From an uncultured Holophaga sp. (GTDB taxonomy: Bacteria > Acidobacteriota > Holophagae > Holophagales > Holophagaceae), in contig OY761614.1 of the NCBI GenBank assembly GCA_963664825.1, positions 1,408,710-1,472,709 of the forward strand: DNA of 64,000 nt, written 5' to 3'. The notes under the pieces were generated by a model. It made no database searches, was not told the origin of the DNA, and was given only the letters and a program-made list of their open reading frames with translations. Position numbers and translations under genes: made by a program. This document shows, piece after piece, positions 1,344 to 51,317 of the stretch. Positions within the stretch are counted from its first letter, which is position 1. The number at the start of each line of letters is the position of its first letter.

Positions 1344-1781
1344 ATGCAGACAGACGTCGAAGGGAAGGCCGCAAATCAATATCTGGCCCAACGCATCCAG
1401 GGCGCGAGCCCGGAGCAGATTGTGGCCATGCTTCTGGAAGGGGGGCAGCGCTTCCTCAATCTAGCCCTCAAGGCCATGAAGGACCGCGATCTTCCGAACC
1501 AGGCCCGCTATGTGAACCGCGTCGCCGATATCCTCGTCGGCCTGAGTGAGCGGCTCAATCACGAAGAGGGTGGCGAACTGGTCGAGAACCTCGTCCGTAT
1601 CTACGATTGGTGGACCAACGAACTCTTCGATGGCGCCATGAACAGCCAGCCGGATCGGCTCCAGAGGATTCTCAATCAGATGGGTGAGCTGCGAGGCACT
1701 TGGGAAGAACTGCATAGGCGTAAGACCCAAGGTGGACAGGTCTCGAATCCCACCAATTCCCTGGGCGAGCTGACGGTTTGA
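1344..1781 (+). CDS. fliS: flagellar export chaperone FliS
   Basis: 145 aa. NQYLAQRIQGASPEQIVAMLLEGGQRFLNLA...ARYVNRVADILVGLSERLNHEEGGELVENLVRIYDWWTNEL matches the FliS four-helix-bundle family pattern. It lies in a flagellar filament locus. Confidence 0.85.
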   Translation: MQTDVEGKAANQYLAQRIQGASPEQIVAMLLEGGQRFLNLALKAMKDRDLPNQARYVNRVADILVGLSERLNHEEGGELVENLVRIYDWWTNELFDGAMNSQPDRLQRILNQMGELRGTWEELHRRKTQGGQVSNPTNSLGELTV

Positions 1782-2065
1782 GCGATGAGGAAGTGAGGTC
1801 CGCCCTGGATTCCATGGAGCAGATGCTTCAGGGGGAACCCATGGATGCGGAGGCCATCGCGGCCTGGCGGCAGCGCTATGCCGCGGCCCTGGCTACTGCG
1901 GAAAAAGGGGAAGGGTGGTCCGAAACCACAGCCCGTGCCCGAGGTTTAGCGGAGCAACTCCACGCTGCCGTGAAAGTCCTTTCCCTTCGAAAAGCCGCGC
2001 TGCAAAAAGCGCAGGGCCTCCAGGCTCAGGGTGCCCGCGCCCTCAAGGGCTATCGACCCTATTGA
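1778..2065 (+). CDS. hypothetical small helical protein downstream of fliS
   Basis: 95-aa ORF with a TTG start overlapping the fliS stop (TTGA). Ala/Gln-rich helical sequence with no family recognised. Its position suggests a FliT-like or flagellar accessory role, but that is inference only. Its 3' end overlaps the convergent GT gene by 7 nt. Confidence 0.35.
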   Translation: MSDEEVRSALDSMEQMLQGEPMDAEAIAAWRQRYAAALATAEKGEGWSETTARARGLAEQLHAAVKVLSLRKAALQKAQGLQAQGARALKGYRPY

Positions 2066-3525
2066 CCGCCCCCTAGATCAGCAAGGACTCGTTGGATCAC
2101 GGATCCCCAGTCGCCGGGGCTGGGTTGACGGTAGATCTGCAGGTTCGGATACCAGGGGCTATCCTCCCGGTGGAGCATCCATCGGAAATCCGGTTGGAAG
2201 GGCAACAGGAGCAGGGTTGGAATGCCCAGGGCCCCAGCCAGATGGACCAGGACCGTGTCTACCGTGACCACCAGATCCATGCCGCTGAGGGCATAGGCGG
2301 TATCTGAAAAATTACTGAGCAGCGGAGCCAGGGAGGCCCAATTCCTCAAGGGTGGCTGCTCGGCCTGACCCAGTTGGAAACTGTGCCAATAAACGCCTGG
2401 AAGGCCGTCCAATGGACGGAGATCCTCCGGAGGAATGGATCGCTTGGCATCCCCTTTGTGATCGGGATTCCCCGCCCAGACCAACCCGACGCGAGCACCT
2501 CCATCAAAAGTTGCCAGGATTTCCTGGATGCTGTCCCGGTTCGGCACGCGCTCTGGCACATCCAGATAGGGCACGGCCCCAGGGATGCTCGCCAGGGTCG
2601 TCCGAAAGATCGCAGGCAGAGACATTAGGGACACCTGGAGATCGAAGGGCGGCAGTTCCGCGCCCTCTGGGATCACCCGATCCACCCCTGAGCAGGTGGC
2701 CACCAGATCCGCCAGTGGCGGCTGCACCATCAAGATGACCGTGCCCCCCAGAACCTTCACCAGGGGCAGGTACCGAATGAACATGAGCGTGTCCCCGAAG
2801 CCCTGTTCGAAGTGGACCAAGAGCGTTCGCCCTCGGAAGGGTTCGCCGTTCCAACGGGGCTCTGTGAAATTTCGTGGAGGCGTGATGCGACCTGGCACCC
2901 TCAGCCGGGATTCGGACTGGATCCAGCCCTGGGGCATCTCTCCGAACATCAGCTGCATGTGGCTTCGCTCGTACTCAGCCTCGGGACCGGAGAACACATC
3001 CAACTGGCGCTCCATGTCCTTGCGGAGTTCGGTCCAATCACCCTGCCAGATGTAGATGTTGTTCAAGCGGCGCCGTGCCATTTCATGGGAAGGCTGACCT
3101 TCCAGGAGTCGCTCCAGGATGGCACGGGCGCCTCCCAGATCCTTCGTCTTGACCAGAACATCGGCCATCACCAGCTGGGCATCCACATTCCGGGGATCCC
3201 TGGCCAACACGCATCGACTCAGGAATCCGGCCTCGTCCACCCTCTCCAGCTGCAACAAGGCATGAGCCAGGTTCACCATCGCCGAAGAGTGATATGGATC
3301 GAGACCCAGGGCCGTCCGACAGGATTTTTCGGCTTCATCCAGGCGGCCCATCACCAGCAGCAGGCCTCCGTAGTCCGCCCAGCCTTCCGCATGGCCAGGC
3401 TCCACCTCCAGGAACGCGCGATAGGCCTTCCGGGCCTCCTCCTGGCGCCCAGCCCTATCCAGCGCCTGTGCCTTGGCAAGCATCTCGATATGCGGCGAAC
3501 AGGGGAGGGAAGGCCTCTCCGACAT
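2059..3525 (-). CDS. TPR-repeat + GT-B (GT9/heptosyltransferase-like) glycosyltransferase, paralogue 1
   Basis: 488 aa. N-terminal TPR-like repeats (KAYRAFLEVEPGHAEGWADYGGLLLVMGRLDEAEKSCRTALGLDP...). C-terminal blocks HFEQGFGDTLMFIRY, NFSDTAYALSGMDLVVTVDTVLVHLAGALGIPTLLL, PDFRWML, DSPWYPNLQIYRQPSPGDW. Confidence 0.75.
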   Translation of the reverse strand: MSERPSLPCSPHIEMLAKAQALDRAGRQEEARKAYRAFLEVEPGHAEGWADYGGLLLVMGRLDEAEKSCRTALGLDPYHSSAMVNLAHALLQLERVDEAGFLSRCVLARDPRNVDAQLVMADVLVKTKDLGGARAILERLLEGQPSHEMARRRLNNIYIWQGDWTELRKDMERQLDVFSGPEAEYERSHMQLMFGEMPQGWIQSESRLRVPGRITPPRNFTEPRWNGEPFRGRTLLVHFEQGFGDTLMFIRYLPLVKVLGGTVILMVQPPLADLVATCSGVDRVIPEGAELPPFDLQVSLMSLPAIFRTTLASIPGAVPYLDVPERVPNRDSIQEILATFDGGARVGLVWAGNPDHKGDAKRSIPPEDLRPLDGLPGVYWHSFQLGQAEQPPLRNWASLAPLLSNFSDTAYALSGMDLVVTVDTVLVHLAGALGIPTLLLLPFQPDFRWMLHREDSPWYPNLQIYRQPSPGDWGSVIQRVLADLGGGQ

Positions 3526-4713
3526 CTAGGCACTCTCCATCAAGTCGCCCAGCACCTCCTGAATCACGGAATTCCAATCCCCCGGAATACTCTGTCGGTA
3601 GATCCGAAGGGTCGGATACCAGGGGCTATCCTCCCGGTAGAGCATCCACCGAAAGTCCGGCTGGAAATGCACCAGCAGAAGGGTCGGGATACCCATGGCG
3701 CCGGCGAGATGAGCCAGGGCCGTATCCACGGTGATCACCAGGTCCATGCCGCTGAGGGCATAGGCCGTATCCGAGAAGGATTGCAGCGCTGGCGCGAGTG
3801 GGACGATACCAGGCAGGGGTGCGTCGGCCAGGACCCCGAACTGGAAACTGTGCCAGGCCGCCCCGGGGATTGCCCCCAGGGGTTCCAACGCCTTGCGCGG
3901 AATGGATCTCTCCTTGTCCCGGGCATGATTGGGACTGCCAGCCCAGGCACACCCGATCCGAAGTTTCCCCTGGGAAGCTACAAGAGCTCTGGCGATGCGA
4001 TCCCGGTTGGGCACCCGCTCCGGCACATCCAGGTAGGGGATTGCCGCCGGAATCGTGCCCAACTCCGTCCGGAAGACATGGGGTAGGGAAGGCAGTGGAA
4101 GCTGAAGATCAAAATCCGGAAGGGGAGCTCCCTCCGCAATGACTTCGTCGAACCCCACACAGGTGGCAATCACGTCCGCCAGCGGTTTCTGGGCAAGCAA
4201 AATCACCCGCCCCCCCAGGGCCTTCACCATCGGCGCGTAGCGGGCAAACATGAAGGTATCGCCAAAGCCCTGTTCGAAGTGCAGGAGCAGCGTCCTACCC
4301 GGAAAGAGTTCTCCCTGCCAACGAGGCTGCGCGAAGGCTCGCTTGGGCTTCACCTTCCCAGGGATCCGAAGCCTGGATTCATACTGGTCCCATCCCTTGG
4401 GCATCTCGCCGAAGAGCAGGCTCAAGTAGCCGCGCTCGTACTCGGCCACGTCAGCGGGGTACTTTTTCTTCAAGATATCCCGCTCCATTTCGGAACGAAG
4501 ACCCAGCCAGTTGATTTCCCGAATATAAAGAGCCGCCCTGACCCCGTGGGCCTGAGCATGATCCGGGTCCAACGCAAGGGCGGCCTGAATCGCCTCTCCC
4601 GCCTGGTCCAATTCCCCTTCGGCCAGGAAACGCTGAGCCTGGCCGATGAGTCCCTCGAGACCCGTGGCAATGGCCTGCTGCCCCTTGAGGTTTTTCGCTG
4701 GATGCGGATTCAC
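3526..4713 (-). CDS. TPR-repeat + GT-B glycosyltransferase, paralogue 2 (short TPR region)
   Basis: 395 aa with a GTG start at 4713 and an AGGTGA-like RBS. Its TAG stop directly abuts the ATG of paralogue 1. HFEQGFGDTFMFARY, SFSDTAYALSGMDLVITVDTALAHLAGAMGIPTLLL, DSPWYPTLRIYRQ. Confidence 0.75.
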   Translation of the reverse strand: MNPHPAKNLKGQQAIATGLEGLIGQAQRFLAEGELDQAGEAIQAALALDPDHAQAHGVRAALYIREINWLGLRSEMERDILKKKYPADVAEYERGYLSLLFGEMPKGWDQYESRLRIPGKVKPKRAFAQPRWQGELFPGRTLLLHFEQGFGDTFMFARYAPMVKALGGRVILLAQKPLADVIATCVGFDEVIAEGAPLPDFDLQLPLPSLPHVFRTELGTIPAAIPYLDVPERVPNRDRIARALVASQGKLRIGCAWAGSPNHARDKERSIPRKALEPLGAIPGAAWHSFQFGVLADAPLPGIVPLAPALQSFSDTAYALSGMDLVITVDTALAHLAGAMGIPTLLLVHFQPDFRWMLYREDSPWYPTLRIYRQSIPGDWNSVIQEVLGDLMESA

Positions 4714-4743
4714 ATTTCACCTTTCATGACATCCGTTTCGGAA

Positions 4744-6204
4744 TTATGCCTCGGGCTCACTCAGATCCCGAAGGATATCCCCGATGACTGATGCCCAATC
4801 CCCAGGGCGAGGCTGGCGGTAGATCCGCATCGCGGGATACCAGGGACTATCTGAACGCCCCAACATCCAACGCCAATCAGGGAGGTAGGAGATCAGGAGC
4901 AGCGTAGGAATACCCAGAGCCCCAGCGAGATGGGCCAAGGCAGTATCCACCGTGATCACTAGGTCCATGCCACTGAGGGCGTAGGCGGTGTCCGAGAAGT
5001 TGTTCAACAAGGGGCCCAGGGAAATGAGGTTGGAAACCGAAGGGAGTTCCCTCACCCCTGGCTGGAGGACACACCAAGTCACATTGGGCAGAACATCGAG
5101 GGGTGCGAGGAGTTCAAGAGGGATGGAGCGCTGGGAATCCCTGACATGGGCGGAGCTACCAGCCCAAGAAAGCCCCACCCGCGTCTGGCCCTGGGAAGGC
5201 ACTAGGATCTCAGCAATCCCTTCCCGGTTTGGCACATGTTCCGGAATACCCAAATAGGGAACCTCGGCAGGAATGGAATCGAGGTCTGTTTGAAACACTC
5301 TCGGAAGGCTGAGCAAGGGCAGATGGAAATCGAAGCCCGGCAGGGGAGCTCCTTCGGGGATAACCTCATCCACCCCGGGACAAGTCCCCATTAGATCCTT
5401 CAACTCTGCCTGGGCCAGCAATAGGACTCTCCCGCCACGGCGCTTCACCATGGATGCGTAACGCACGAACATCAGGGTGTCGCCCAATCCCTGTTCACAG
5501 TGCAACAACAGAGTCTGACCCTCGAAAGATTGCCCGTTCCAGAGCGGCTGGGGAAATTCCCGTTTTAAGGCTTCGACGCCCGGAAGCTCCCAGCGGGACT
5601 CCTGTTGTTCCCAGCCCTCGGCCGTGGCCCCAAAAGCGAGATTCACGCAGCTTCGCTCCCATTCCGCCTGGGCACCGATATAATCAGTGTTCACGCGGCG
5701 GAGCATCTCTAGGCGCAAGGCTGGCCAGTCCTCCTGCTGGATGAGGACCTGGATGAGCAGATGAGTGACCATCGGATTGCCGGGCGCCTGCGCCGCAGCC
5801 CGTTCCAGGACAGACCGAGCCTGCGCCAAGTGGTTTCGCTGCATCAAGGACCACGCCAGATCCAAGCGGGCTTCCAATCTCTCAGGAACCGCCGCCAGCA
5901 ACCGTTCAAACAGGGCCCCAGATTCCTCCCAGTGACCCAATCTGTGATGAGCCTTCGCGAGATTGGCCAGGATGCGAGGATTGTTCGGATCCATTCCAAG
6001 GGCTCTGGCAAGGGCCTCTCGGGCATCCTCAAGTCGATTCATGGAGAGCAGCAGGTCACCATACTCGGCCCAGGCTTCGAACATTTCCGGATGGAGCATC
6101 AACAGATTCCGATAAGCCGCGAGGGTCCGAGGGTCTTTGCCCAAACACCCCTGGACCCGGACTTTTTCAAGCATCTCCCAAGGGGTTTCAGGAACGTCCA
6201 TCAT
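4744..6204 (-). CDS. TPR-repeat + GT-B glycosyltransferase, paralogue 3
   Basis: Track ORF 4744..6300 trimmed to the ATG at 6204-6202, which forms an ATGA overlap with the stop of paralogue 4. HCEQGLGDTLMFVRY, NFSDTAYALSGMDLVITVDTALAHLAGALGIPTLLL, DSPWYPAMRIYRQPRPGDW. Confidence 0.75.
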   Translation of the reverse strand: MMDVPETPWEMLEKVRVQGCLGKDPRTLAAYRNLLMLHPEMFEAWAEYGDLLLSMNRLEDAREALARALGMDPNNPRILANLAKAHHRLGHWEESGALFERLLAAVPERLEARLDLAWSLMQRNHLAQARSVLERAAAQAPGNPMVTHLLIQVLIQQEDWPALRLEMLRRVNTDYIGAQAEWERSCVNLAFGATAEGWEQQESRWELPGVEALKREFPQPLWNGQSFEGQTLLLHCEQGLGDTLMFVRYASMVKRRGGRVLLLAQAELKDLMGTCPGVDEVIPEGAPLPGFDFHLPLLSLPRVFQTDLDSIPAEVPYLGIPEHVPNREGIAEILVPSQGQTRVGLSWAGSSAHVRDSQRSIPLELLAPLDVLPNVTWCVLQPGVRELPSVSNLISLGPLLNNFSDTAYALSGMDLVITVDTALAHLAGALGIPTLLLISYLPDWRWMLGRSDSPWYPAMRIYRQPRPGDWASVIGDILRDLSEPEA

Positions 6205-7673
6205 GCTTCGCCCTGGCCCAAATCCCGAAGGATCTCCCCAATGACCGATTCCCAATCCCCGGGCCGGGGCTGCCGGTAGATCCGCATCGTGGGGTACCAA
6301 GGGCTATCCGATCGCTCCAACAACCACCTCCAATCGGGGAAGAAGGGAAGCATCAGGAGGGTCGGAATCCCCAGAGCCCCGGCCGCATGGGCCAGGGCCG
6401 TATCCACGGTAATCACTAGATCCATGCCGCTGAGGGCGTAGGCCGTGTCTGAAAAATTGCTCAACAACGGGGCCAGGGAAACGCTGGGAAGAGGCAACAC
6501 CTCTGTCTCCGGCAGCTGGAAGCTATGCCAAGCAACCCCTGGCAACTCTGCCAGGGGGGCCAACAGACTGGGAGCAATGGATCGCCTCTTGTCGTTTCGG
6601 AAGGCCGAATTCCCTGCCCAGGCATAGCCGATTCTCGTTCGGCCTTCGGAGGCCGCGAGGACCTGGGCCAGCCACTCACGGTTGGGCACACGCCCGGGCA
6701 CGTCGAGATAGGGGATATTGCCGGGAATTTCATCCAGGCTGGTACGGAATACCCTGGGAAGAGAGAGCAGCGATAAATGGAAGTCGAAGGAGGGAAGCGG
6801 ATCCCCATAGGCCACCACCTGGTCCACCCCTGGGCAAGTGCCAACCAGATCCACAAGCGGCGCCTGGACCACCACAACCACTTGGCCGCCTCGAGCCTTG
6901 GCGAGAGGGGCGAAGCGAATGAACATCAGGGTGTCACCGAAGCCTTGTTCCCAGTGGAGGAGTACGGTTTTCCCCGGAAACGGTTCCCCATCCCAAACGG
7001 GCTGTTGGGATGGACCTAACTTGAATTTGAACTGGCGCAAAACTTGGAAACGTACCTCGTACTGCTCCCATCCCAGCGGTAGCTTCCCGAATCTCAGATT
7101 CAGATAACTCTGCTCCAACAGCGCCTCGGGGCATCCCGGCATGGCCCTCAATCGGCGCTCTATCTCCGCCCCCAGGGCCTCCCAATCACCCCGACTGGAA
7201 TGGAGATAGGCCAAATTATTAAAGGCTTCAAAATTATCAGGCTGCCGGGACAGAATCATTTCCAAGTGTTTGAGGGCATCCTCTGGATCCCCTTTCCTGA
7301 TGAGACATTCGGAAAGATCTACTTCCGCATCGATCCGTCGCAGATTCGCGGCCAGGATCTGCCGGAATATGTGCTCGGCCTCCTCCAGGCGTTCCTGTTT
7401 CAGTCTCGTACAACCGAGGTTGATTTGGGCTTCAGGATGAGCGGCATCCATTCCTAAGGCCCTTTCGCAAGCCTTGGAGGCCTCATCCAGGCGGTTCATG
7501 TTCAGCAACAGACCTCCCAGATCCGCCCAGGCCCCCACGCAGGAGGGCTGGACTACCAGGAAATGTCGATAGGCTTCAAGGGCTTCCGCGGTACGGCCAG
7601 CTCGTTGCAAAGCCTGGGCCTCCTCCCATTGGGCCCATCGGTCATGCGCCACAATCATCCCCTTCTTATCCAA
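6201..7673 (-). CDS. TPR-repeat + GT-B glycosyltransferase, paralogue 4
   Basis: 490 aa from a TTG at 7673. An ATG 5 codons in (7658) with an AAGGGG RBS is an alternative start. HWEQGFGDTLMFIRF, NFSDTAYALSGMDLVITVDTALAHAAGALGIPTLLM, DSPWYPTMRIYRQPRPGDW. Confidence 0.75.
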   Translation of the reverse strand: MDKKGMIVAHDRWAQWEEAQALQRAGRTAEALEAYRHFLVVQPSCVGAWADLGGLLLNMNRLDEASKACERALGMDAAHPEAQINLGCTRLKQERLEEAEHIFRQILAANLRRIDAEVDLSECLIRKGDPEDALKHLEMILSRQPDNFEAFNNLAYLHSSRGDWEALGAEIERRLRAMPGCPEALLEQSYLNLRFGKLPLGWEQYEVRFQVLRQFKFKLGPSQQPVWDGEPFPGKTVLLHWEQGFGDTLMFIRFAPLAKARGGQVVVVVQAPLVDLVGTCPGVDQVVAYGDPLPSFDFHLSLLSLPRVFRTSLDEIPGNIPYLDVPGRVPNREWLAQVLAASEGRTRIGYAWAGNSAFRNDKRRSIAPSLLAPLAELPGVAWHSFQLPETEVLPLPSVSLAPLLSNFSDTAYALSGMDLVITVDTALAHAAGALGIPTLLMLPFFPDWRWLLERSDSPWYPTMRIYRQPRPGDWESVIGEILRDLGQGEA

Positions 7674-7718
7674 GAGAGTCCCGCCATTGGGTTCATTTCA
7701 TCCTGTCATGCAAATCAC

Positions 7719-9173
7719 CTATATTCCATCCGTGAGGCCTCGCACCAGCTCGTTCATCACCGAATCCCAATCGCCCGGACTCGGCTGCCGGAAAATCCGC
7801 AAGGTGGGATACCAGGGACTGTCGTCCCGGTCCAGTAGCCATCGGAAATCCGGGACGTACGTCACCAAAAGCAGGGTGGGAATCCCCATGGCACCTGCAA
7901 GGTGGGCAAGCGCGGTATCCACGCTGATCACGAGGTCCATCCCGCTGAGCGCATAGGCCGTGTCGGAAAAATCACTCAAGAGAGGCGTCAGTGAGACGCA
8001 ACCCGGCAAGGAGGGCTCGTCGGATTGCCCGATTTGGAAACTGTGCCAAGCCACATCCGGCACTGCCTCCAGACAGTTGAGGAGCGCCATCGGGAGCGAA
8101 CGCTCCGCATCCCGAGCGTGGCCAGAATTGCCTGTCCAGACCAGACCAATACGAGTGCGGCCCTCAGAAGCGGCCAGGACCTCGGCAATGGGCCGACGAT
8201 TGGGAACCTGAGGGGGAATTCCCACGTAGGGGATCTCCGACGGTATCGAGCCCAGGTCGGTTTGAAACACCCTCGGAAGTGAATACAGGGAAATCTGCAG
8301 ATCAAAATGCGGTAGGGGGTCCCCTTGAGCAAGGACCTGATCCATACCCTGGCAGGTGGTCAGTAGGCCCGCGAGGGAAGGCTGGACCAGCAATAAGACC
8401 CTGCCCCCCCGCCCCTTCACCAGGGGCAGGAAGCGAACGAGCATCAAGGTGTCCCCGAACCCTTGTTCGTAGTGGACCAGCAGGGTCCTGTCGGCAAAGG
8501 GTTCCCCATTCCAGCAGGGCTCCACGAAATCCCGCTGTGGCGCCACACAACCTGGCACCCGAAGGCGAGCCTCCCACTGCTGCCAGCCGAGAGGCATGAC
8601 GCCCTGGAGGAGGTTCGCGAAACCGCGCTCGAATTCCAGATAGGCCGAGAATGGGTCCTGCCTCTCGTAGCGCTGGAGTTCGGCTCCGAACTCCGCCCAT
8701 TGGCCCTGTCCGTAGAAGATTTGCCCCAAATACTGATGCGCCGACACATTTGCTGGATTCCCCTGGAGAACCTTCTCCAAGACTGTACGGGCCGCCTCCC
8801 AATCCTTTTTCCCTAGTAGGCATTTCGCCAAGGAGAGGCGAACCTCGACCCGGTCAGGCTCCACCGCGAGGACCTTCCTGAACAGCTCTTCAGCCTCGTC
8901 CAGCCGACCATGATGCAGGGAAACGCAGCCCAAATGGTATTGGGCCGATATCTGACCTGGATTCAGGGACAGGGCCTTGCGACAAGCCTTCAGGGCCTCA
9001 TCGTAGCGTTGGAGCCCCAGCAAGATCCCCGCGAAATCCGTCCAGGCCAAAGCATCCAGCGGCTGAGCCTCCAGATACCTCACGAAGGCTTGGGCTATTT
9101 CCTCAGATTCACCGCCCTGTAGAGATTCCCTGAGCAGGGCGAGCAACCTAAGAGCCTTAGCCTTCACACTCAC
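7719..9173 (-). CDS. TPR-repeat + GT-B glycosyltransferase, paralogue 5
   Basis: 484 aa with a GTG start at 9173. HYEQGFGDTLMLVRF, DFSDTAYALSGMDLVISVDTALAHLAGAMGIPTLLL, DSPWYPTLRIFRQPSPGDW. First gene after fliD on the same strand. Confidence 0.75.
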   Translation of the reverse strand: MSVKAKALRLLALLRESLQGGESEEIAQAFVRYLEAQPLDALAWTDFAGILLGLQRYDEALKACRKALSLNPGQISAQYHLGCVSLHHGRLDEAEELFRKVLAVEPDRVEVRLSLAKCLLGKKDWEAARTVLEKVLQGNPANVSAHQYLGQIFYGQGQWAEFGAELQRYERQDPFSAYLEFERGFANLLQGVMPLGWQQWEARLRVPGCVAPQRDFVEPCWNGEPFADRTLLVHYEQGFGDTLMLVRFLPLVKGRGGRVLLLVQPSLAGLLTTCQGMDQVLAQGDPLPHFDLQISLYSLPRVFQTDLGSIPSEIPYVGIPPQVPNRRPIAEVLAASEGRTRIGLVWTGNSGHARDAERSLPMALLNCLEAVPDVAWHSFQIGQSDEPSLPGCVSLTPLLSDFSDTAYALSGMDLVISVDTALAHLAGAMGIPTLLLVTYVPDFRWLLDRDDSPWYPTLRIFRQPSPGDWDSVMNELVRGLTDGI

Positions 9174-9182
9174 TCCTCATGT

Positions 9183-9211
9183 CCGCCTCTTTTGTCTCAC
9201 AAAAAGGGCGG
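9183..9211 (-). other. imperfect stem-loop between fliD and the first GT paralogue
   Basis: Plus-strand ccgcctcttttgt (9183-9195), loop ctc, acaaaaagggcgg (9199-9211). 11 of 13 positions pair. There is no U-run on the transcribed strand. Confidence 0.35.
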
Positions 9212-9236
9212 ATGTGAGCGGGCTATCACCAAATCC

Positions 9237-10943
9237 TCAGCTCAAGAGAGAAGCGGCGGCTTTCATCTCGGTCATCGTCGACTCCATCTTGTCGAATTGC
9301 TCCTTGAGCGCGGCCTCCTTCTTGTCGAGGCGGGCCTGAGCCACCTCGATCTGGGTGGCCAAATTCGTGTTCTGGGCATCGATGCTGGCCCGAGTCTTTT
9401 CAATGGTTCCCGAGTACGAGGTGAGGCTCGAGATCAGGTCCTGCAGCTTCTGACCCACACCGCGGCTGATGGTCAACGTGCCGCTCCCAGAGGCCGTCAC
9501 AGCCAGACTGAGCCCTTCCAGGGGGGTGCCGGTGGGCCCCAGGAGGGTGCCATTGGTCCCAGTCAGGCCACTGTACGTGGTCCCACCATAGGTCAACGAA
9601 CCGCTCACGGCCCCGCCTGTCCCATAGGTCAGATCAAAATCTACGGCTCCCGTTGAGGTCGCAGTGGTGCCTGAACCGAAGGTGACGGTTCCATTGGTGG
9701 ATGTGCCCGAGAAGGAGAACACCTTGCTTACGGCGTCGGGGTCCTTGTCCAGGGCCGCCTTGAACGCAGTGGTATCCAGGGTAAGGGTGCCATCGGAGTT
9801 GGTCTTGAGGCCGATTTGCCCTGCGGACGTGAACGTGGCCGAGGAGGAGAGTCCATCCGCCCCACTGCCCAGAGTCGTCCGCAACTGGCTAATGACCGAA
9901 CGGGCCACGTAATCACCCGCGAGGGGACCCGATGTGGTGTCACCGGTGTCCGCATCCTTGGTGACGGTCGAAGCATCCTTGTAGGTCTTGATGATTGCAT
10001 TATACTTCGTGACCAGATCCTGGAGAGCAGTCGTTGCCGTCGCCTTATCCTGGGCCACCGTGAGCGTCGTGGCATTGGTGGCATCGCCCTTTTTTAGGGT
10101 GAAGGTGACGCCATCCACCACGTCCTTGACTGTGTTGGTCTGGCGGGTGAGGGCGATACCATTCACAGAAAAGAGCGCGTCCTGGGCGATGCCGCTGCTA
10201 GAAGAGGACAGGCCTCCACTCAACCCCGTGGGCGCAGCGATGGTCCCGGCCAAGGTTCCACTGGTGATGCCCAGGGAAGCAACCACCGTAGTGGCGGTAT
10301 TGCCCGCATCCTCGTTATTGACGGCGGCCAACTCAACCACGCCCCCAGTCGTGCCCGTGCCTGTTTCCTTGGCGGTCACCACCAATTGGTAGGGGTTGGT
10401 TCCTGAGCCGGTATTGATGATCGAGGCCGTGACCCCGGCCCCGGAGGCGTTGATCGCATCCCGCAGCCCGTTGAGACTGTTATTAGTGAGTTTGAAGGCC
10501 TTGACGACACCATCCGTGCCTTTCACGGCAAAGCTTCCGCTAGTGCTGGTCAGGATGGCCGCATTGGGGTCCGAGACAACCATGTTGGTGGGCGTGGAAC
10601 CCAACATGACGGGGCCCAATTTCCCCTTGGTGGCCACCTGGGTGACTTTTACCTCATAGCTGCCCGAGACTGCCCCGGTGGCAGTAGCGGTGGCATAGGT
10701 ATTATCGGCATCCGTGCTGGAAACGGCCTTGGCATTGAGGGCATCGTAAACCTTGGCCATGCTGAGCGTGAGATCCGACAAACCCGTGCGCATGGAATTT
10801 AGTGCAGTGGAACGTGCAGTGTTTGTGGTCTTGCGAGCCTTCAGGCGATCCATAGCCCCACTATCGGCCGAGATGATGGCCGCAACGAGCTTGTCCGTCT
10901 GGAGCCCAGAGGTTACGCCTTGGAAACTAAGGGCTGATGTCAT
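9237..10943 (-). CDS. fliD: flagellar filament cap protein FliD
   Basis: 568 aa with a GGAGGTG RBS. N-terminus SFQGVTSGLQTDKLVAAIISADSGAMDRLKARK and C-terminus ...IDAQNTNLATQIEVAQARLDKKEAALKEQFDKMESTMTEMKAAASLL are the FliD N- and C-terminal domain patterns. The middle is Thr/Gly/Ser-rich. Confidence 0.9.
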   Translation of the reverse strand: MTSALSFQGVTSGLQTDKLVAAIISADSGAMDRLKARKTTNTARSTALNSMRTGLSDLTLSMAKVYDALNAKAVSSTDADNTYATATATGAVSGSYEVKVTQVATKGKLGPVMLGSTPTNMVVSDPNAAILTSTSGSFAVKGTDGVVKAFKLTNNSLNGLRDAINASGAGVTASIINTGSGTNPYQLVVTAKETGTGTTGGVVELAAVNNEDAGNTATTVVASLGITSGTLAGTIAAPTGLSGGLSSSSSGIAQDALFSVNGIALTRQTNTVKDVVDGVTFTLKKGDATNATTLTVAQDKATATTALQDLVTKYNAIIKTYKDASTVTKDADTGDTTSGPLAGDYVARSVISQLRTTLGSGADGLSSSATFTSAGQIGLKTNSDGTLTLDTTAFKAALDKDPDAVSKVFSFSGTSTNGTVTFGSGTTATSTGAVDFDLTYGTGGAVSGSLTYGGTTYSGLTGTNGTLLGPTGTPLEGLSLAVTASGSGTLTISRGVGQKLQDLISSLTSYSGTIEKTRASIDAQNTNLATQIEVAQARLDKKEAALKEQFDKMESTMTEMKAAASLLS

Positions 10944-10982: not shown

Positions 10983-11375
10983 TCAGCCTTGTTTGTCCAT
11001 CAGAACACCTGAAGCATCTTTGGTGCCATTTAGTTCCCGCAGTCTCTTAGCCATGGCCAGAACTTCTTCGGAAGGCACCTGACGAATCGTTTTCTGGGTC
11101 TTCGGATCTACCACCTTGAAGTAATACTCCCCGGTTTCCTTATCCACCCCAAACTCGAGATCCCTGGAGGATTGCTGCAGATATTCCTCTACACTCTTGG
11201 CCGCCTCTCGGAGACTGTCCTCAGACATACCCACAGCCTGTTGATCCTCAGCCTTGGGCTTGGATTCAACAGGTCTAGCTTGAAGGGATTTTGACGGAGA
11301 GGTAACAGCGAGAGCCTGCAGTGTCTGGGCCATCCCCGACGCCAAGCCCCCCGTTGGGTCAACTTGAGCGGCCAT
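10983..11375 (-). CDS. flaG: flagellar protein FlaG
   Basis: 130 aa with an AAGGAGG RBS. C-terminal EFGVDKETGEYYFKVVDPKTQKTIRQVPSEEVLAMAKRL matches the FlaG family. Sits between the flagellin gene and fliD. Confidence 0.8.
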   Translation of the reverse strand: MAAQVDPTGGLASGMAQTLQALAVTSPSKSLQARPVESKPKAEDQQAVGMSEDSLREAAKSVEEYLQQSSRDLEFGVDKETGEYYFKVVDPKTQKTIRQVPSEEVLAMAKRLRELNGTKDASGVLMDKQG

Positions 11376-11394
11376 GGAATTCCTCCTTATGATG

Positions 11395-11431
11395 CATCAT
11401 TGGGGACAGGCCTAGCCCGTCCCCAATGATG
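11395..11431 (-). other. 13-bp perfect stem-loop between flagellin stop and flaG RBS (attenuator or mRNA-stabiliser candidate)
   Basis: catcattggggac (11395-11407), 11-nt loop, gtccccaatgatg (11419-11431). Begins 15 nt after the fliC TAG stop. Not followed by a U-tract on the minus strand. Immediately precedes the flaG AAGGAGG. Confidence 0.5.
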
Positions 11432-11445
11432 ATCATAAAACCCGG

Positions 11446-12096
11446 CTACTTGAGGAGGCCCAGGACCGTCTGGCTGGCCGAGTTGGCATTGCTCAGCGCG
11501 CTGGTGCCGGCCTGGCTCAGGATCTGCCACTTGGTGAGCGAAACCACCTCGGCTCCGATATCGGCATCCATGATGTTGCTCATCTGGGCGGTCTTGTTCT
11601 CAGACTCGATGCCGTAGAGGTTGGCATTGGACTGGGCCGTAGCCATGGCGCTGGCGACCGTGGCGCGAGCCGTGGCAATGGCGGTGAGCGCGGTGCTGGC
11701 AGTGGCAAGGTCCGTGACGGCGCTCAAGGTTACGCTGGCCTTGGTCGCAGCTGCCAGGGCCAGAGTGCTGGTGGACGACATCTCGGCCGCGGTCGTATTG
11801 CCGCCGGAAGCCAACTCTACGGCTCGCAGCACAAGGTTGGTGGCCTCGTCCAGATACCCATCCTGAGCGGCGGCGGCATAGTAGTTGTTGTTCTCAATTT
11901 TCCGTTTCTCGGTGGCCACGCGGGAATCGGCGCTGAGGTTATTGGCCTGAGCCAGACCGGTGGCGTCATCGGAAGCGCTGTTGATGCGCTTGCCCGTGGT
12001 CAGCCGCTGGATGGTCTTGGACATCCCGGCATTGGTGATGCCCAACTGACGAGTGGCCTGCAGGGCGGAAACGTTATTGAGAATTGAAGCTGCCAT
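11446..12096 (-). CDS. fliC: flagellin, minimal-length (216 aa)
   Basis: Track ORF 11446..12186 trimmed to the ATG at 12096, which has GGAGGA 4 nt upstream. N-terminus MAASILNNVSALQATRQLGITNAGMSKTIQRLTTGKRINSASDDATGLAQANNL. C-terminus NIMDADIGAEVVSLTKWQILSQAGTSALSNANSASQTVLGLLK. These are canonical flagellin D0/D1 termini. Confidence 0.9.
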   Translation of the reverse strand: MAASILNNVSALQATRQLGITNAGMSKTIQRLTTGKRINSASDDATGLAQANNLSADSRVATEKRKIENNNYYAAAAQDGYLDEATNLVLRAVELASGGNTTAAEMSSTSTLALAAATKASVTLSAVTDLATASTALTAIATARATVASAMATAQSNANLYGIESENKTAQMSNIMDADIGAEVVSLTKWQILSQAGTSALSNANSASQTVLGLLK

Positions 12097-12207: not shown

Positions 12208-12365
12208 GGGCCAACCAAAAATTCCCGAGCAGTCTGATGGAGAATGATGGGGAATAGACCTCCTCATGGATCTCCTCTTGTTCTGTTCTATTGGCGTACA
12301 CGGGTACGGCTGCCCTCGTTCGCCCGGAGAAGCCTCCGCCCCCCTTACCGGTCCCGGAAAGGCCC

Positions 12366-14249
12366 ATGCCCATGAAACTCCTGGTTGTCATCCCCACATG
12401 GAATCGCGCGGATTACCTGGATAAAGCCATCAGTGCCATTTCTGCCGCCCGCTCCCGTGCTCGAAACTGCCATGTGGAGCTGTTCGTCTCGGATAACTGT
12501 TCATCGGATCACACCTCCGACGTGATGGCTCGATGGCAGGAGATCGGCCCATGGATTCACTACCTCCGCTGGGAAGAACATACAGGCGACTGGGCCGAAA
12601 TTTTGAGAAGGGCCTTCCTGAGCTCTCAACTCGAATATGACTATCTGTGGCTTCAGGGGGATGATGATTACGTTTGCGACACAACAGCGTACATTCAGCT
12701 CCAAGAAGCCCTGATGACCTACACGGAGAATCCACCGGCCCTTGTCCACTGTTGCCAGGCCCGGCGTTCCCTGCCTGGAGATCGGCGCGTTCTCGAAGGC
12801 AACACCGAAGACCTTTGCAATACCTATGGCTGGCATGACCTGCTCGGCTGGGTTTCTAGCCTCGTAATATCCAAGGGAACTGTCGGCCGAATGATGGCCT
12901 CTCCCCAATGGGAGACGCCCGCCCCCTCCGCCTTCATCCATTCAGAGGCCCTGCTCGAGGCAGCCTACGGTCGGACCATGCTTATCCTCACAGCTGGGCT
13001 CATCGACCCCCAGGACGAGCAGCAGACCGCCGAAAGCCTACAACGCTGGGCAGAGGCCAATGTGGGGGAGCGTTACTGGCGCATTATTCCAGGGCTCCTG
13101 AATCTAAGACAGCGTGGCGTTCTGACAACCCCCATGACTCTGGGATTCTTCCGCTACCTCACCGGAACTTTTTGGGATCGCTTCGCAACGGAGGTGATGT
13201 CTCGAGCCTCCATGCCGGACACGCCCGAGGAAGAGCTCCGGAATAAGCTCCGCCTGCTCAGCTTCTTCTCGGTAATGACGGCATCCGGCCAAGATCAGAA
13301 GCTCTACGAGGACTGGTTCGATGGATTCCAGGATGACGTTTGGGAGGTCCGTCGAGCCATTCACTTGATCCAGAAACGCATTGAAGGTTCTACGCGCCCT
13401 TCCCGCTCCTTCAGTCTCCTCACTCCACCATCGGTCAGTAGCCCAACACCGGCAAAGAATGCCATCCATCCGGAATCAACCCTTAACTGTAAATGTTGTG
13501 GCAGCATATCTTCCTACCTCGGTTATCTTGATTTCAACAAATCATGTTCAGATAGAAATGGACGAGTACTCCCACTGAGTGAAGAAAGAGTACCATACTA
13601 TGGATGTCCAAATTGTGGGTTTGTATTTACAAATTACTGCGATAAATGGTCATCCAATGACTTTAAAGAGCTTATTTACAATAAAGAATATTCAAGAGTA
13701 GATTTTGACCCAAATATTGCTGACGGGATAGAAGCTACAATATCTTATAAAAACGGAAAGGCTCTGGCTTCATACCTGGATGGAGGCCAGGGCAAACTCA
13801 GGTTGTTAGATTTTGGCGCGGGCGGAAATCCAGGAACAATGGGACATGCACTTATCGACAGCGGATTTGACGTAACATCCTTCGAACCCTATTTTTCCGA
13901 CACTGCAGACACCTTAAAGCTATCCGGCAAATATGACGTCATTTACGCCATAGAGGTTTTTGAACATTGTCACGATCTGCCTGCTGTACTAAAAATTATA
14001 GATAAATATTTGTCAAATAACGGAATTTTATACTTTTCAACACTTTTGCATCCTTTTCCACCTACTGGAAATGTCCTAGACTCATGGTACATAGCGCCAC
14101 GAAACGGACACGTGTCAATTTTTACAGAACAAGCTATTACAACATTATTTAAACAAATAGGAATCAACATAATGCACCACACTCTGGGCTGGATAGGATT
14201 CAAAAATCCACCCAATTTCCACAACGCTTTTTTTATAGACCATGATTAA
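12366..14249 (+). CDS. fusion protein: family-2 glycosyltransferase + Cys4 zinc-ribbon + class I SAM methyltransferase
   Basis: Track ORF 12291..14249, with ATG at 12366 preferred (GGAAAGG RBS). GT2 part: KLLVVIPTWNRADYLDKAISAI...FVSDNCSSDHT...LQGDDDYV. Zinc ribbon: CKCCGS...CPNCGF. MT part: LRLLDFGAGGNPG...DVTSFEP...YDVIYAIEVFEHCHDL. Confidence 0.75.
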   Translation: MPMKLLVVIPTWNRADYLDKAISAISAARSRARNCHVELFVSDNCSSDHTSDVMARWQEIGPWIHYLRWEEHTGDWAEILRRAFLSSQLEYDYLWLQGDDDYVCDTTAYIQLQEALMTYTENPPALVHCCQARRSLPGDRRVLEGNTEDLCNTYGWHDLLGWVSSLVISKGTVGRMMASPQWETPAPSAFIHSEALLEAAYGRTMLILTAGLIDPQDEQQTAESLQRWAEANVGERYWRIIPGLLNLRQRGVLTTPMTLGFFRYLTGTFWDRFATEVMSRASMPDTPEEELRNKLRLLSFFSVMTASGQDQKLYEDWFDGFQDDVWEVRRAIHLIQKRIEGSTRPSRSFSLLTPPSVSSPTPAKNAIHPESTLNCKCCGSISSYLGYLDFNKSCSDRNGRVLPLSEERVPYYGCPNCGFVFTNYCDKWSSNDFKELIYNKEYSRVDFDPNIADGIEATISYKNGKALASYLDGGQGKLRLLDFGAGGNPGTMGHALIDSGFDVTSFEPYFSDTADTLKLSGKYDVIYAIEVFEHCHDLPAVLKIIDKYLSNNGILYFSTLLHPFPPTGNVLDSWYIAPRNGHVSIFTEQAITTLFKQIGINIMHHTLGWIGFKNPPNFHNAFFIDHD

Positions 14250-14318: not shown

Positions 14319-15128
14319 ATGCCTTTCAACGTATGCCAACCCTTCCCCTCCTTCGTAGAACTGACGCCAAGTCGTTATGGCCGCATGCTCTACCCGAAGA
14401 ACGATCAGTACGTGGGACGTTCCTTCAAGGAATACGGAGAGTTCAGTGAAGGTGAGGTCGAAATCTTCACCCACTTTGTCCAGCCGGGGGCCATCGTCCT
14501 GGACGTGGGAGCCAATATCGGCGCCCATACCGTGCCCCTAGCGCAATTAGTCGGACCCGGGGGCGTGGTGGTTGCCTTCGAGCCCCAGCCAGTCCTACAC
14601 CAAATCCTGTGTGCAAACTTGGCGCTCAACAGTATCCCCAATACCCTTACGCACGCCATGGCCCTTGGTGACCGCCAAGGCTCCTGTCAGATACCCTTCC
14701 TGGATTATGCCTCCTCGTTTAATTTTGGAGGCGTGAGCATGGATATGGTAAAGGAGGGAGAAACGGTCCCCATGGGCACGCTGGATGCCTTCCATTTGCA
14801 GCGGATTGATTTCATTAAGCTGGACGTGGAAGGCTTTGAATCCAAGGTTCTGAAGGGAGGCACCAAGACCATCGACCGGTGCCGTCCCGTCATCTACCTT
14901 GAAAACGACCGGGCCGAGAAATCCGCCAACTTGATTCAACTGCTTTTTGAAATGGGCTATCGCCTTTGGTGGCATCGCCCCCCACTCTTCAATCCTGATA
15001 ACTTCAAGGCCAATTCGGAAAACGTCTTCCCGAACATTGGCTCTATGAATATGCTGGGCATTCACCGCGATCAGAAACCAGTGACAGGCCTCAGACCCAT
15101 CCTGACCGCGGAAGATCAATGTCTATGA
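14319..15128 (+). CDS. FkbM-family SAM-dependent methyltransferase
   Basis: 269 aa. VLDVGANIGAHTVPLAQLVGPGGVVVAFEPQP...ALGDRQG...IDFIKLDVEGFESKVLKGG is the FkbM (Methyltransf_21) pattern. Confidence 0.85.
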   Translation: MPFNVCQPFPSFVELTPSRYGRMLYPKNDQYVGRSFKEYGEFSEGEVEIFTHFVQPGAIVLDVGANIGAHTVPLAQLVGPGGVVVAFEPQPVLHQILCANLALNSIPNTLTHAMALGDRQGSCQIPFLDYASSFNFGGVSMDMVKEGETVPMGTLDAFHLQRIDFIKLDVEGFESKVLKGGTKTIDRCRPVIYLENDRAEKSANLIQLLFEMGYRLWWHRPPLFNPDNFKANSENVFPNIGSMNMLGIHRDQKPVTGLRPILTAEDQCL

Positions 15129-15188: not shown

Positions 15189-16556
15189 TCAATCCTTGTC
15201 CTTGCCGCCTCCCAGCATGGCCTTGAATCGATTAAAGAGTCCGCCGGATTCCGAGGGATCGATGTCTTCTTCCTTGAGATTGATTTCGGGAGGAACGGGG
15301 ACAGATGGGTCGAGTTCCAAGGCCTTCTGATAACAGGCCTTGGCGTTGGCCTTGAAGCCCTTTCGGTGATAGACCTCGCCCATGAGGGCCCAGGGCTCGG
15401 CGGCCCTGGGTTTGAGGCGAGAGGCCACCTGGAGGGCCTCGATGGCCCGGGTGGACCAGGCCGGATTAATAAGTCGGTGCTTGCCAAGCAGAAGCCAGGG
15501 TTCGTAGGCATGCTCCGTATCCGGATCCAGCCTCACGCTCTCCTCCAGAAGCCGGATGGCCTCCACGGTCCGGTCCTGCACCAGCAGAGCCTTCGCCTTG
15601 GCAAAGAACTTCCTCGCCCTGAGACTCGAATTCTCCCCAAGGGCCTCGACCTCTTGCAGGGGGATAGATGGGATCTCCCCATAACTGGGGAATGCAACCC
15701 CGGGCGCAGTGTCCTCGACCGAGGGCTCCGGCTCAATGCGAGGGGAGAACTCCAGCGGGGGAAGGGGTGGCGGCACCGCAAGGGGAATCACTGGGGGCGG
15801 AGGCTCCAGCACCAGCGGTTCGGCCACCGGCACCACCTGGGGCATCTCGCCCTGGGAGAGAGTCAGCGCACCCAGGGCCCAGAGGGTCACCAACAGACGC
15901 GCGGCCTCGGCTTCATCCAGGCTATTGAGGGACAGGAAGGTCTCGAAACCCATGGGCTCCCGGCCCAGGAAGGAGAGGGCATAGGCCGTGGAGGGTGTGA
16001 GGGGCAAATCGCTGAGGGACGAGAGGAGATCTGAATGCGCCTCCCAACGCCATTCGCTCTCCTGGAAGAGGAGATCGCAGAGATCGTCCTCATTGTGGGC
16101 CTCGTGGAAGGTGGTCCAGACAAAGTGCCGGTGGTTTACCTGAAAGCGCAGATCATCACTCAGTTGGCGTTGCAGGGCCCCGGGCTTCCACTCCATCTGG
16201 ATGATGGGATGTTCCAAGGCATGGATCATCACCTGCTCCTGGAGGGAACGCAGATGCAGATCCCGCTCTTCAATCGACATCAGGCCCCATTGGATGACCT
16301 TTTCTCCCAACCGGAAGCGTTCCTCGTTGGCGAGCAGCTCGTTCAACGACGGGAAATCCAGGATCCCCTGGCGTAGCAGGTAGTTGCCGAACTGTTCCCC
16401 AGCCACATCGCTCTGGAGGTAGATGATGTTCCCGTCCACCCAATAGAGACGTCGACACCCATCGTTCTGCTCGAGAATGAGCGTGCCCTCGGCCTTCTGC
16501 TGACAGAGGGTTCCCATGATGGCGGGCAGGATCTGGGGTGGATCCGGTCGGGTCAC
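15189..16556 (-). CDS. DUF4388 (PATAN-like) domain protein with Pro-rich linker and C-terminal TPR
   Basis: Track ORF 15189..16901 trimmed because its upstream part overlaps the divergent kinase start. GTG at 16556 has GGAGAA 4 nt upstream. ILPAIMGTLCQQKAEGTLILEQNDGCRRLYWVDGNIIYLQSDVAGEQFGNYLLRQGIL resembles DUF4388. The C-terminus has TPR-like repeats. Confidence 0.6.
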   Translation of the reverse strand: MTRPDPPQILPAIMGTLCQQKAEGTLILEQNDGCRRLYWVDGNIIYLQSDVAGEQFGNYLLRQGILDFPSLNELLANEERFRLGEKVIQWGLMSIEERDLHLRSLQEQVMIHALEHPIIQMEWKPGALQRQLSDDLRFQVNHRHFVWTTFHEAHNEDDLCDLLFQESEWRWEAHSDLLSSLSDLPLTPSTAYALSFLGREPMGFETFLSLNSLDEAEAARLLVTLWALGALTLSQGEMPQVVPVAEPLVLEPPPPVIPLAVPPPLPPLEFSPRIEPEPSVEDTAPGVAFPSYGEIPSIPLQEVEALGENSSLRARKFFAKAKALLVQDRTVEAIRLLEESVRLDPDTEHAYEPWLLLGKHRLINPAWSTRAIEALQVASRLKPRAAEPWALMGEVYHRKGFKANAKACYQKALELDPSVPVPPEINLKEEDIDPSESGGLFNRFKAMLGGGKDKD

Positions 16557-16700
16557 AGGTTCTCCGAAAATGGAATTGACGAGTAAATCATGCAAATAGT
16601 CCTGATATTGACGCGGGAGCGGCCACCCTTGTCTTGGCCCCGCACGGGGTAGGCCGTATTCTTGTTCGTGTTTCCATTTTGCACCGAACCCGGTGGTTTC

Positions 16701-21484: not shown

Positions 21485-21492
21485 CTAAGCCC

Positions 21493-51182: not shown

Positions 51183-51317
51183 CGCAATCTGAGCCCCTCC
51201 TGGACAATGAAGGATCGGAGCCAGATGGCATCGCTTAGGCCATGTTCGAATCGAAAAGAATGGGGTCCACTCCCCCATTCGATGTTGGATCACACTATGG
51301 ATCGCCTCGGAGAGCCT

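Follow-up and report, generated by a model that had tools for sequence, protein, structure and literature searches.

Five consecutive minus-strand genes (paralogues 1 to 5) in the genome of an uncultured Holophaga sp. (Acidobacteriota; assembly of 3.47 Mb) lie downstream of the flagellin gene fliC, and each encodes a protein in which an N-terminal arm of tetratricopeptide repeats (TPR; about six repeats) precedes a C-terminal domain (CTD) of about 300 aa. The stretch of DNA analysed here, the window, is 64,000 nt long and all positions are those of the window. Based on homology and gene context we propose that the five genes probably encode cytoplasmic protein O-glycosyltransferases of the type of Caulobacter FlmG, which would modify flagellar filament protein before its export. 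To our knowledge, no flagellin glycosyltransferase with TPR plus GT-B other than FlmG has been studied to date. The TPR-guided GT-B class that it represents is known, whereas a branch in Acidobacteriota that carries a GT9 motif and places five paralogues beside one flagellin gene is new. The array is a branch of distant FlmG relatives and an expansion of a large, little-studied family, not a new kind of system. We establish below the architecture and fold of these proteins, their homology to FlmG and to GT9 enzymes, their invariant catalytic motifs and their conserved linkage to flagellin genes.

Five paralogues with conserved catalytic domains and divergent TPR arms

The genes of the array, in the order in which they follow fliD, are:
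7719..9173, minus strand: paralogue 5, 484 aa, the first gene after fliD; about six TPR repeats and a GT9-like GT-B domain
6201..7673, minus strand: paralogue 4, 490 aa; its stop codon and the start codon of paralogue 3 share the sequence ATGA
4744..6204, minus strand: paralogue 3, 486 aa counted from the ATG at 6204; the open reading frame (ORF) extends to 6300
3526..4713, minus strand: paralogue 2, 395 aa; TPR arm reduced to about 94 aa
2059..3525, minus strand: paralogue 1, 488 aa; its ATG follows directly on the TAG of paralogue 2

All five ORFs are intact and were confirmed at the coordinates of the original prediction, made from the letters of the window. The same five genes are found in public gene calls on identical metagenome contigs, with lengths of 488, 395, 486, 485 and 482 aa for paralogues 1 to 5, the call for paralogue 4 starting at 7658 and that for paralogue 5 at 9167. 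The spacers from fliD through the array are 63, 45, -4, 30 and 0 nt, and both junctions that the prediction had singled out, TAG abutting ATG at 3525/3526 and the ATGA overlap at 6201-6204, were read straight off the sequence. Within the 64 kb there are exactly five copies of the family and one flagellin gene.

In a MAFFT alignment the full-length identity to copy 1 is 50-55%; over about 480 aa chance falls far short of such values, and the genes are paralogues. Compared domain by domain, the CTDs show 57-64% identity and are about equally diverged from one another, whereas the TPR halves share just 17-40% identity, in agreement with the earlier impression that the catalytic halves are the better conserved. 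The shortness of copy 2, which had been said to lack about 90 N-terminal residues, is likewise real, as its arm measures 94 aa and those of the other four 183-188 aa. The conserved blocks noted at the outset proved invariant in all five copies by alignment: EQG[FL]GDT, FSDTAYALSGMDLV..VDT.L.H.AGA.GIPTLL, PD.RW and DSPWYP...I.RQ..PGDW.SV.

Distant homology to FlmG over both domains

Caulobacter FlmG is a protein of 596 aa in which the TPR domain (residues 1-313) binds flagellins and the GT-B domain (residues 309-596) sets the specificity for pseudaminic or legionaminic acid; the enzyme is both necessary and sufficient for flagellin modification (PMC7591256; bioRxiv 10.1101/2022.03.25.485807). 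As a reference we used the codon-optimised flmG Cc-TPR/Bs-GT chimera, translated from the supplement of the 2022 preprint (bioRxiv 10.1101/2022.03.25.485807). BLASTP aligned all five window proteins with this chimera collinearly over the TPR and the glycosyltransferase parts (E 1e-13 to 1e-18, 24-26% identity), and the alignment by hhalign of the CTD profile with the GT-B domain of Brevundimonas FlmG reached 98.4% probability (E 7.5e-15, 290 columns, 26% identity). Judged by these alignments, the homology of the five proteins to FlmG is real, if distant, and extends over both domains, which bears out the comparison with FlmG more strongly than the original prediction had drawn it.

As in FlmG (Caulobacter crescentus CCNA_01524; Brevundimonas subvibrioides Bresu_2406), the TPR arm is N-terminal and the GT-B domain C-terminal, the genes stand with flagellin genes, the enzymes are cytoplasmic (by prediction in our case) and the acceptor, presumed here, is a short flagellin without outer domains. 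In contrast to FlmG, the TPR arm of the window proteins is about 185 aa long rather than about 300 aa, there are five paralogues instead of one gene, and the host belongs to Acidobacteriota and not to Caulobacterales, to which FlmG has been described as confined (bioRxiv 10.1101/2023.12.03.569772). Three motifs also differ between the window family and FlmG-Bs: EQGFGD in the family is EQGIAD in FlmG-Bs, VDT..H is GPG..N, and DSPWYP is DRYPFYP.

Peptides derived from flmG primers (MSRKSALESSA, FQIPGVRWSGQDLRGK, ALRDFAAS) fitted the family motifs and were not decisive. Scanning metagenome contigs with degenerate DNA for WSGQDLR returned no C. crescentus flmG and only genes for TPR-CTD-FkbM fusions. 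A family member from a metagenome-assembled genome (MAG) of Caulobacteraceae (L065) was considered as an FlmG orthologue and rejected because of its non-flagellar context.

A GT9-type GT-B fold and its catalytic motif

Pfam matched each of the five proteins to several TPR families and, at the motif FSDTAYAL..VDT, to Glyco_transf_9 (PF01075). The latter match is borderline, scoring 20.7-24.5 bits against a cut-off of 22 and covering only about 35-40 of the 247 profile positions; the NCBIfam model for heptosyltransferase I scored 17-23 against a cut-off of 185, and about 260 residues of the CTD are covered by no curated Pfam or NCBIfam model. Of the families that had been anticipated, the TPR repeats and Glyco_transf_9 were thus recovered, the second over about 35 residues, and Glyco_transf_41 was not. 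Membership in GT41 was rejected, as none of the proteins matched PF13844 (Glyco_transf_41) and no GT41 entry was present among the 50 CTD-only fold matches listed.

The assignment to GT9 comes from the fold. AlphaFold2 models, built with an alignment of 75 sequences, place twelve TPR-type helices ahead of two Rossmann-like lobes, with a predicted local distance difference test (pLDDT) score of 94.2 for full-length paralogue 5 and 95.5 for the CTD alone. With the full-length model the top Foldseek matches are the TPR plus GT-B protein glycosyltransferases SPINDLY, OGT and XcOGT, a similarity that we attribute to the TPR arm and the generic GT-B fold. With the CTD alone the best matches are GT9 enzymes, namely the Veillonella protein 3tov, WaaF and WaaC, together with the protein O-heptosyltransferase TibC (E 3e-9 to 1e-5, template modelling score 0.45-0.58; top entries 3tov, 1psw, 2h1h, 6dfe and 2gt1). 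Sequence searches of the Protein Data Bank (PDB) were less informative: full-length queries were swamped by TPR matches, and phmmer with the CTD alone matched nothing. When the PDB sequences were compared with the HMMER profile of the CTD, SDTAYALSGMDLVITVDTALAHLAGALGIPTL aligned with WaaC residues 245-276, placing the invariant Asp on D261 and the invariant His on H266 in a short match whose E-value is not significant. The WaaC motif D261-T262-G263..H266 corresponds to the invariant VDTALAH, and VDT[AV]L[AV]H and EQG[FL]GD are both present in all five copies; we take the WaaC residues of these motifs (the Asp of the G-D motif and D261-T262-G263..H266) to be catalytic or donor-site residues. 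The EQGFGD motif and an invariant R-S pair are retained in 75 homologues. The call of a GT9-type GT-B domain therefore stands, with GT9 enzymes and TibC heading the fold matches and the GT9 catalytic motif aligning.

Among known enzymes, WaaC, WaaF and the uncharacterised 3tov are the best structural matches of the CTD and have in common with it the D261-T-G..H266 and N-terminal G-D motifs. The GT9 enzymes, however, lack a TPR arm, their acceptors are lipid A-core oligosaccharides, and their sequence similarity to the window CTD is not significant beyond about 35 residues. The bacterial autotransporter heptosyltransferases (BAHT) TibC/Aah have a GT9-like GT-B fold and, as is predicted for the window enzymes, O-glycosylate Ser/Thr of a secreted protein in the cytoplasm; TibC matches the window CTD in structure (E about 1e-6). 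Yet TibC forms dodecamers that contain iron, has no TPR arm and acts on the passenger domain of an autotransporter, and the identity is 13-15%. The GT41 enzymes (OGT, SPINDLY and Xanthomonas XcOGT) also feed a GT-B catalytic domain from a TPR superhelix, but as the catalytic domain of the window proteins matches GT9 when taken alone, they are analogues from another family. Maf proteins (MAF_flag10) resemble the array in that several paralogous flagellin glycosyltransferases stand within one flagellar locus; they differ in an unrelated, GT-A-like catalytic fold, a C-terminal TPR domain and nonulosonic-acid donors. Membership in Maf was rejected, as no MAF_flag10 or DUF115 match was found by Pfam in any of the five.

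The N-termini, read by eye from the translations and not by a prediction tool, have no obvious hydrophobic signal or membrane segment, and on this basis the enzymes are probably cytoplasmic.

Linkage to the flagellin locus

The genes and spacers around the array are as follows:
14319..15128, plus strand: FkbM-family methyltransferase (Pfam Methyltransf_21), divergent from fliC
12291..14249, plus strand: fusion of a GT2 glycosyltransferase and a class I methyltransferase (Pfam Glycos_transf_2 and Methyltransf_23), divergent from fliC
11446..12096, minus strand: fliC, a minimal flagellin of 216 aa (Pfam Flagellin_N and Flagellin_C; NCBIfam)
11376..11445, minus strand: fliC-flaG spacer; right behind the stop codon of fliC it holds a long perfect hairpin (CATCATTGGGGACGGGC...GCCTGTCCCCAATGATG), then a GGAGG ribosome-binding site for flaG
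10983..11375, minus strand: flaG (Pfam FlaG)
9237..10943, minus strand: fliD, the filament cap, 568 aa, rich in Ser, Thr and Gly (Pfam FliD_N and FliD_C)
9174..9236, minus strand: spacer between fliD and paralogue 5 with a hairpin (CCGCCCTTTTTGTGAGACAAAAGAGGCGG)
1778..2065, plus strand: small conserved ORF of 83-95 aa between fliS and paralogue 1, overlapping the 3' end of paralogue 1 by 7 nt
1344..1781, plus strand: fliS, the flagellin export chaperone (NCBIfam TIGR00208; Pfam FliS in L001), convergent with the array

Pfam and NCBIfam assignments confirm that the array lies downstream of fliC-flaG-fliD on the same strand. The description of the array as inserted between fliD and fliS holds by position, but fliS is on the plus strand and convergent with it, and the arrangement varies among relatives. 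The most plausible start of fliC, MAASILNN, gives a protein of 216 aa, a call also made in L002. Ser and Thr make up 23% of this flagellin, and its residues 101-165 (65 aa) hold 22 Ser/Thr and 20 Ala. Short and Ser/Thr-rich, it is similar to the short flagellins on which FlmG acts in Caulobacter.

Homologues that bear a name are from Holophagaceae (Acidobacteriota). Five other Holophagaceae loci carry 1, 2, 2, 2 and 4 copies, and all five stand beside fliC-flaG-fliD-fliS with varying order and orientation. To survey the wider family, one genome per species was scanned with the CTD profile, yielding at least 578 loci, among them these five from Holophagaceae, and gene context was counted for 80 family loci, using iterated hidden Markov models and a distance of 10 kb to a flagellin-family gene. 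Such a gene was found at 19 of the 80 loci (24%), where a rough estimate for chance is about 1%. The 19 include delta-, alpha- and betaproteobacteria, Verrucomicrobiota, Gemmatimonadota and Neomarinimicrobiota, as well as Oryzomonas japonica Red96 (L027), where a flagellin gene is preceded by four tandem copies. The survey of copy number in related genomes that the original prediction had called for thus reveals a linkage that is kept in Holophagaceae and recurs across phyla.

In a neighbour-joining tree paralogue 2 pairs with L004_2 (98% bootstrap, 73% identity) and paralogue 3 with L007_4 (86% bootstrap), while L007_1 and L007_2 are a recent duplicate. These pairings and this duplicate indicate that the paralogues are of old origin, that some have orthologues in other genera and that copies have been gained and lost. 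L004_2, the closest orthologue of paralogue 2, has a longer TPR arm. The island of the relatives also contains TPR-methyltransferase fusions, a GT4-like gene and other methyltransferases, a content that fits a variable flagellin-modification island with TPR arms as the targeting device.

A large family that multiplies as tandem genes and fused modules

Of 1.84 billion cluster representatives scanned with HMMER, 43,477 matched the CTD family at E<=1e-3 and 22,579 did so at E<=1e-30. The top matches (P0131-P0280; L142 75-7973) are proteins of 2,000-3,100 aa in which 4-6 complete CTD modules are separated by TPR stretches. Nine tandem family genes stand in an alphaproteobacterial MAG (L038 461-17147) and seven in the cyanobacterium Hormoscilla (L044 10022-20856), in both cases with no flagellin gene nearby; cyanobacteria, Hormoscilla included, have no flagella. 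Azospirillum replicons carry 10-12 copies, named 'tetratricopeptide repeat(-containing glycosyltransferase family) protein' in RefSeq, and a member on a Paraburkholderia chromid has a non-flagellar neighbourhood. On three metagenome contigs (L102, L111, L140) the TPR arm and the family CTD are followed by a C-terminal FkbM-type methyltransferase in proteins of about 840-900 aa, which links the family to the type of methyltransferase encoded near fliC in the window. The gene of the giant protein P0131 adjoins a gene for a TPR plus Glyco_transf_41 protein, with no flagellin gene in view.

The original prediction knew of no described five-member array next to a single short flagellin, and its five copies are real; multiplicity as such is nevertheless common, with 2-4 copies beside flagellin genes (in the relatives and in Oryzomonas), nine in tandem and 4-6 as fused modules. 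The five-gene array is the upper end for flagellin-linked loci in this sample and is not unique in kind. In the literature that was searched, no paper describing multi-copy arrays of this type was found. FlmG thus appears as one divergent branch of a very large and essentially unannotated family of TPR-guided, GT9-like proteins, which is linked to flagellin genes in many phyla and multiplies as tandem genes or fused modules, in contrast to the narrow distribution of FlmG in the literature.

Flagellin as the predicted acceptor

Several observations weigh against flagellin modification by the array. The modification of flagellin in this organism is predicted from homology and context, the proteins are only about 25% identical to FlmG, and their donor-site motifs are not the same as in FlmG. 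The family is huge, most of its members are not near flagellar genes and some are cyanobacterial, and hence family membership alone does not prove a flagellin acceptor. The window has one flagellin gene, and acceptors encoded elsewhere in the genome are possible. No genes for the biosynthesis of sugar nucleotides or nonulosonic acids were found in the 64 kb, and as regards expression, hairpins follow fliC and fliD and no sigma-70, sigma-28 or sigma-54 promoter or intrinsic terminator stood above the shuffled background.

These points could be taken to mean that the enzymes glycosylate another protein or a glycolipid and that their adjacency to flagellin is coincidental, all the more so as family members occur in cyanobacteria and in unrelated neighbourhoods and the nearest solved folds are heptosyltransferases of lipopolysaccharide. 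We regard this as very improbable. The adjacency is kept in six of six Holophagaceae loci despite rearrangement, it is found in at least seven other lineages and at a frequency far above the chance estimate, the sole characterised homologue is a flagellin glycosyltransferase, and the TPR arm implies a protein partner.

We therefore keep to FlmG-type modification of filament protein as the probable function, and propose that the N-terminal TPR superhelix would dock an acceptor that is unfolded or folded only in part, most likely the Ser/Thr-rich flagellin of 216 aa whose gene stands three genes upstream, and that the C-terminal GT9-type GT-B domain would transfer a sugar from a nucleotide-sugar to Ser/Thr hydroxyls. 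The GT2-methyltransferase fusion, likely an accessory glycan-modifying enzyme, and the FkbM methyltransferase would probably extend or methylate the glycan. It is from such evidence that we infer the identity of the acceptor, the class of the donor and a division of labour among the copies.

As to the donor, no NeuB-, PseI- or LegI-like gene was found in the 64 kb, nor did one lie within 10 kb of the 80 family loci, and the only sugar-related genes nearby are the GT2-methyltransferase fusion and the FkbM methyltransferase. The lack of a pseudaminic- or legionaminic-acid synthase gene near the array sets it apart from FlmG; the window is only a part of the genome, and in Caulobacter, too, the pathway genes are not adjacent to flmG. 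The window family retains the signature of GT9 enzymes that use nucleoside diphosphate (NDP) sugars (VDT..H), whereas FlmG, a user of sugars activated by cytidine monophosphate (CMP), does not. As the donor-site motifs are of this NDP-sugar GT9 type and not GPG..N, the donor would probably not be the CMP-pseudaminic or CMP-legionaminic acid used by FlmG, a difference for which the motifs are a hint and not proof. The array could thus reveal a non-sialic-acid donor for this enzyme class.

Why five copies

Since the CTDs are conserved with invariant motifs and the TPR arms have strongly diverged, we suggest that the five copies would share the same or a similar donor chemistry and would differ in their hold on the acceptor, so as to reach other sites of the flagellin and/or other flagellar proteins. 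Such a division of labour is plausible on comparative grounds. It has a precedent in an unrelated enzyme class, the Maf proteins of Shewanella, as Maf-1 and Maf-2 prefer different serines and Maf-1 binds flagellin via its TPR domain (bioRxiv 10.1101/2023.12.03.569772).

In its most specific form, which we offer tentatively and as a possibility of modest weight, the array would be site-addressed, each TPR arm presenting a different stretch of the flagellin, which is free of outer domains, to the same GT9-type active site with an NDP-sugar as donor (e.g. heptose or hexose, later methylated). If true, it would constitute a second chemical branch of FlmG-type flagellin glycosylation and give a first handle on a family of TPR-guided protein glycosyltransferases, about 43,000 clusters in all, in which specificity for acceptor sites is encoded by the organisation in several modules. 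Five TPR arms on one type of catalytic domain, together with a single 216-aa flagellin, make a compact system for acceptor-site specificity in cytoplasmic O-glycosylation, and the array could supply modular parts for glyco-engineering.

The same divergence of the arms would suit paralogues that each serve another flagellar protein, be it FliC, FliD, FlaG, a hook or junction protein or flagellins encoded elsewhere. FliD is indeed very rich in Ser, Thr and Gly, the window is only a part of the genome, and the single FlmG of Caulobacter serves six flagellins (PMC7591256). We nevertheless consider one substrate per paralogue rather unlikely, as relatives with the same fliC-flaG-fliD-fliS set have one or two copies and there is no second flagellin gene within the 64 kb.

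Alternatively, the copies may be largely interchangeable members of a redundant or diversifying family with frequent gain and loss, kept for dosage or for a variable surface glycan coat that evades phages or predators. The copy number, which ranges from 1 to 5 among Holophagaceae, the lineage-specific duplication of L007_1 and L007_2, the merely partial orthology and the variation of accessory genes between relatives, with one stretch of low G+C in the window, all point in this direction. So do the last 282 nt of paralogues 3 and 4 (window 4743-5024 and 6200-6481), which are 80% identical in DNA where other copies show about 65%, hinting at local gene conversion. On the other hand, a CTD identity of about 60% marks the paralogues as old, all of them are intact, a search for long phase-variable homopolymer tracts found none, and for two of the paralogues other genera have well-supported orthologues (98% and 86% bootstrap), which speaks for distinct roles being maintained. 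On balance we give redundancy, too, a rather small chance; were the copies redundant, the array would simply be a gene-family expansion.

Flagellin glycans in other bacteria are often oligosaccharides made by several transferases, and it is conceivable that one paralogue attaches the first sugar and the others extend the glycan, their TPR arms holding all of them on the same substrate. The adjoining GT2 and methyltransferase genes would agree with such stepwise assembly, and the fusion of 4-6 CTDs in one protein would be fitting for an assembly line. Enzymes that use different donors or sugar acceptors, however, usually differ in their active-site motifs, whereas the five CTDs share theirs invariantly at about equal divergence, and the strongest divergence lies in the protein-binding arm and not in the catalytic half. 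Stepwise assembly is for these reasons distinctly unlikely, and differences in acceptor binding among FlmG-type enzymes are what we propose for the five copies.

Other features of the window and of related loci

The hairpin after fliC (11376..11445) is probably an attenuator or a stabiliser of the mRNA. The small ORF at 1778..2065 matched no family.

Between 13000 and 15000, a stretch that takes in the FkbM gene and the 3' half of the gene for the GT2-methyltransferase fusion, the G+C content is 41-48%, compared with about 60% around it, which suggests recently acquired accessory genes for glycan modification. In the related Holophaga genome of L004, two TPR-methyltransferase fusions (719 and 579 aa; L004 1069-5003) stand directly upstream of fliC and may be TPR-targeted methyltransferases of flagellin or glycan.

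The flagellin island of the window is flanked at 15189-18212 by a DUF4388 (PATAN-like) plus TPR protein on the minus strand and a Ser/Thr protein kinase on the plus strand, with overlapping ORFs, and the L004 island is flanked in the same order by an ORF with C-terminal TPR and a Ser/Thr protein kinase. Further on, three sizeable plus-strand ORFs at 19697-23737 (595, 333 and 250 aa) matched nothing in Pfam at E<=1e-5, and at 51207-55112 a protein of 1,301 aa joins a peptidase domain of type C10 (streptopain-like) to carboxypeptidase-regulatory-like and Ig-like domains.

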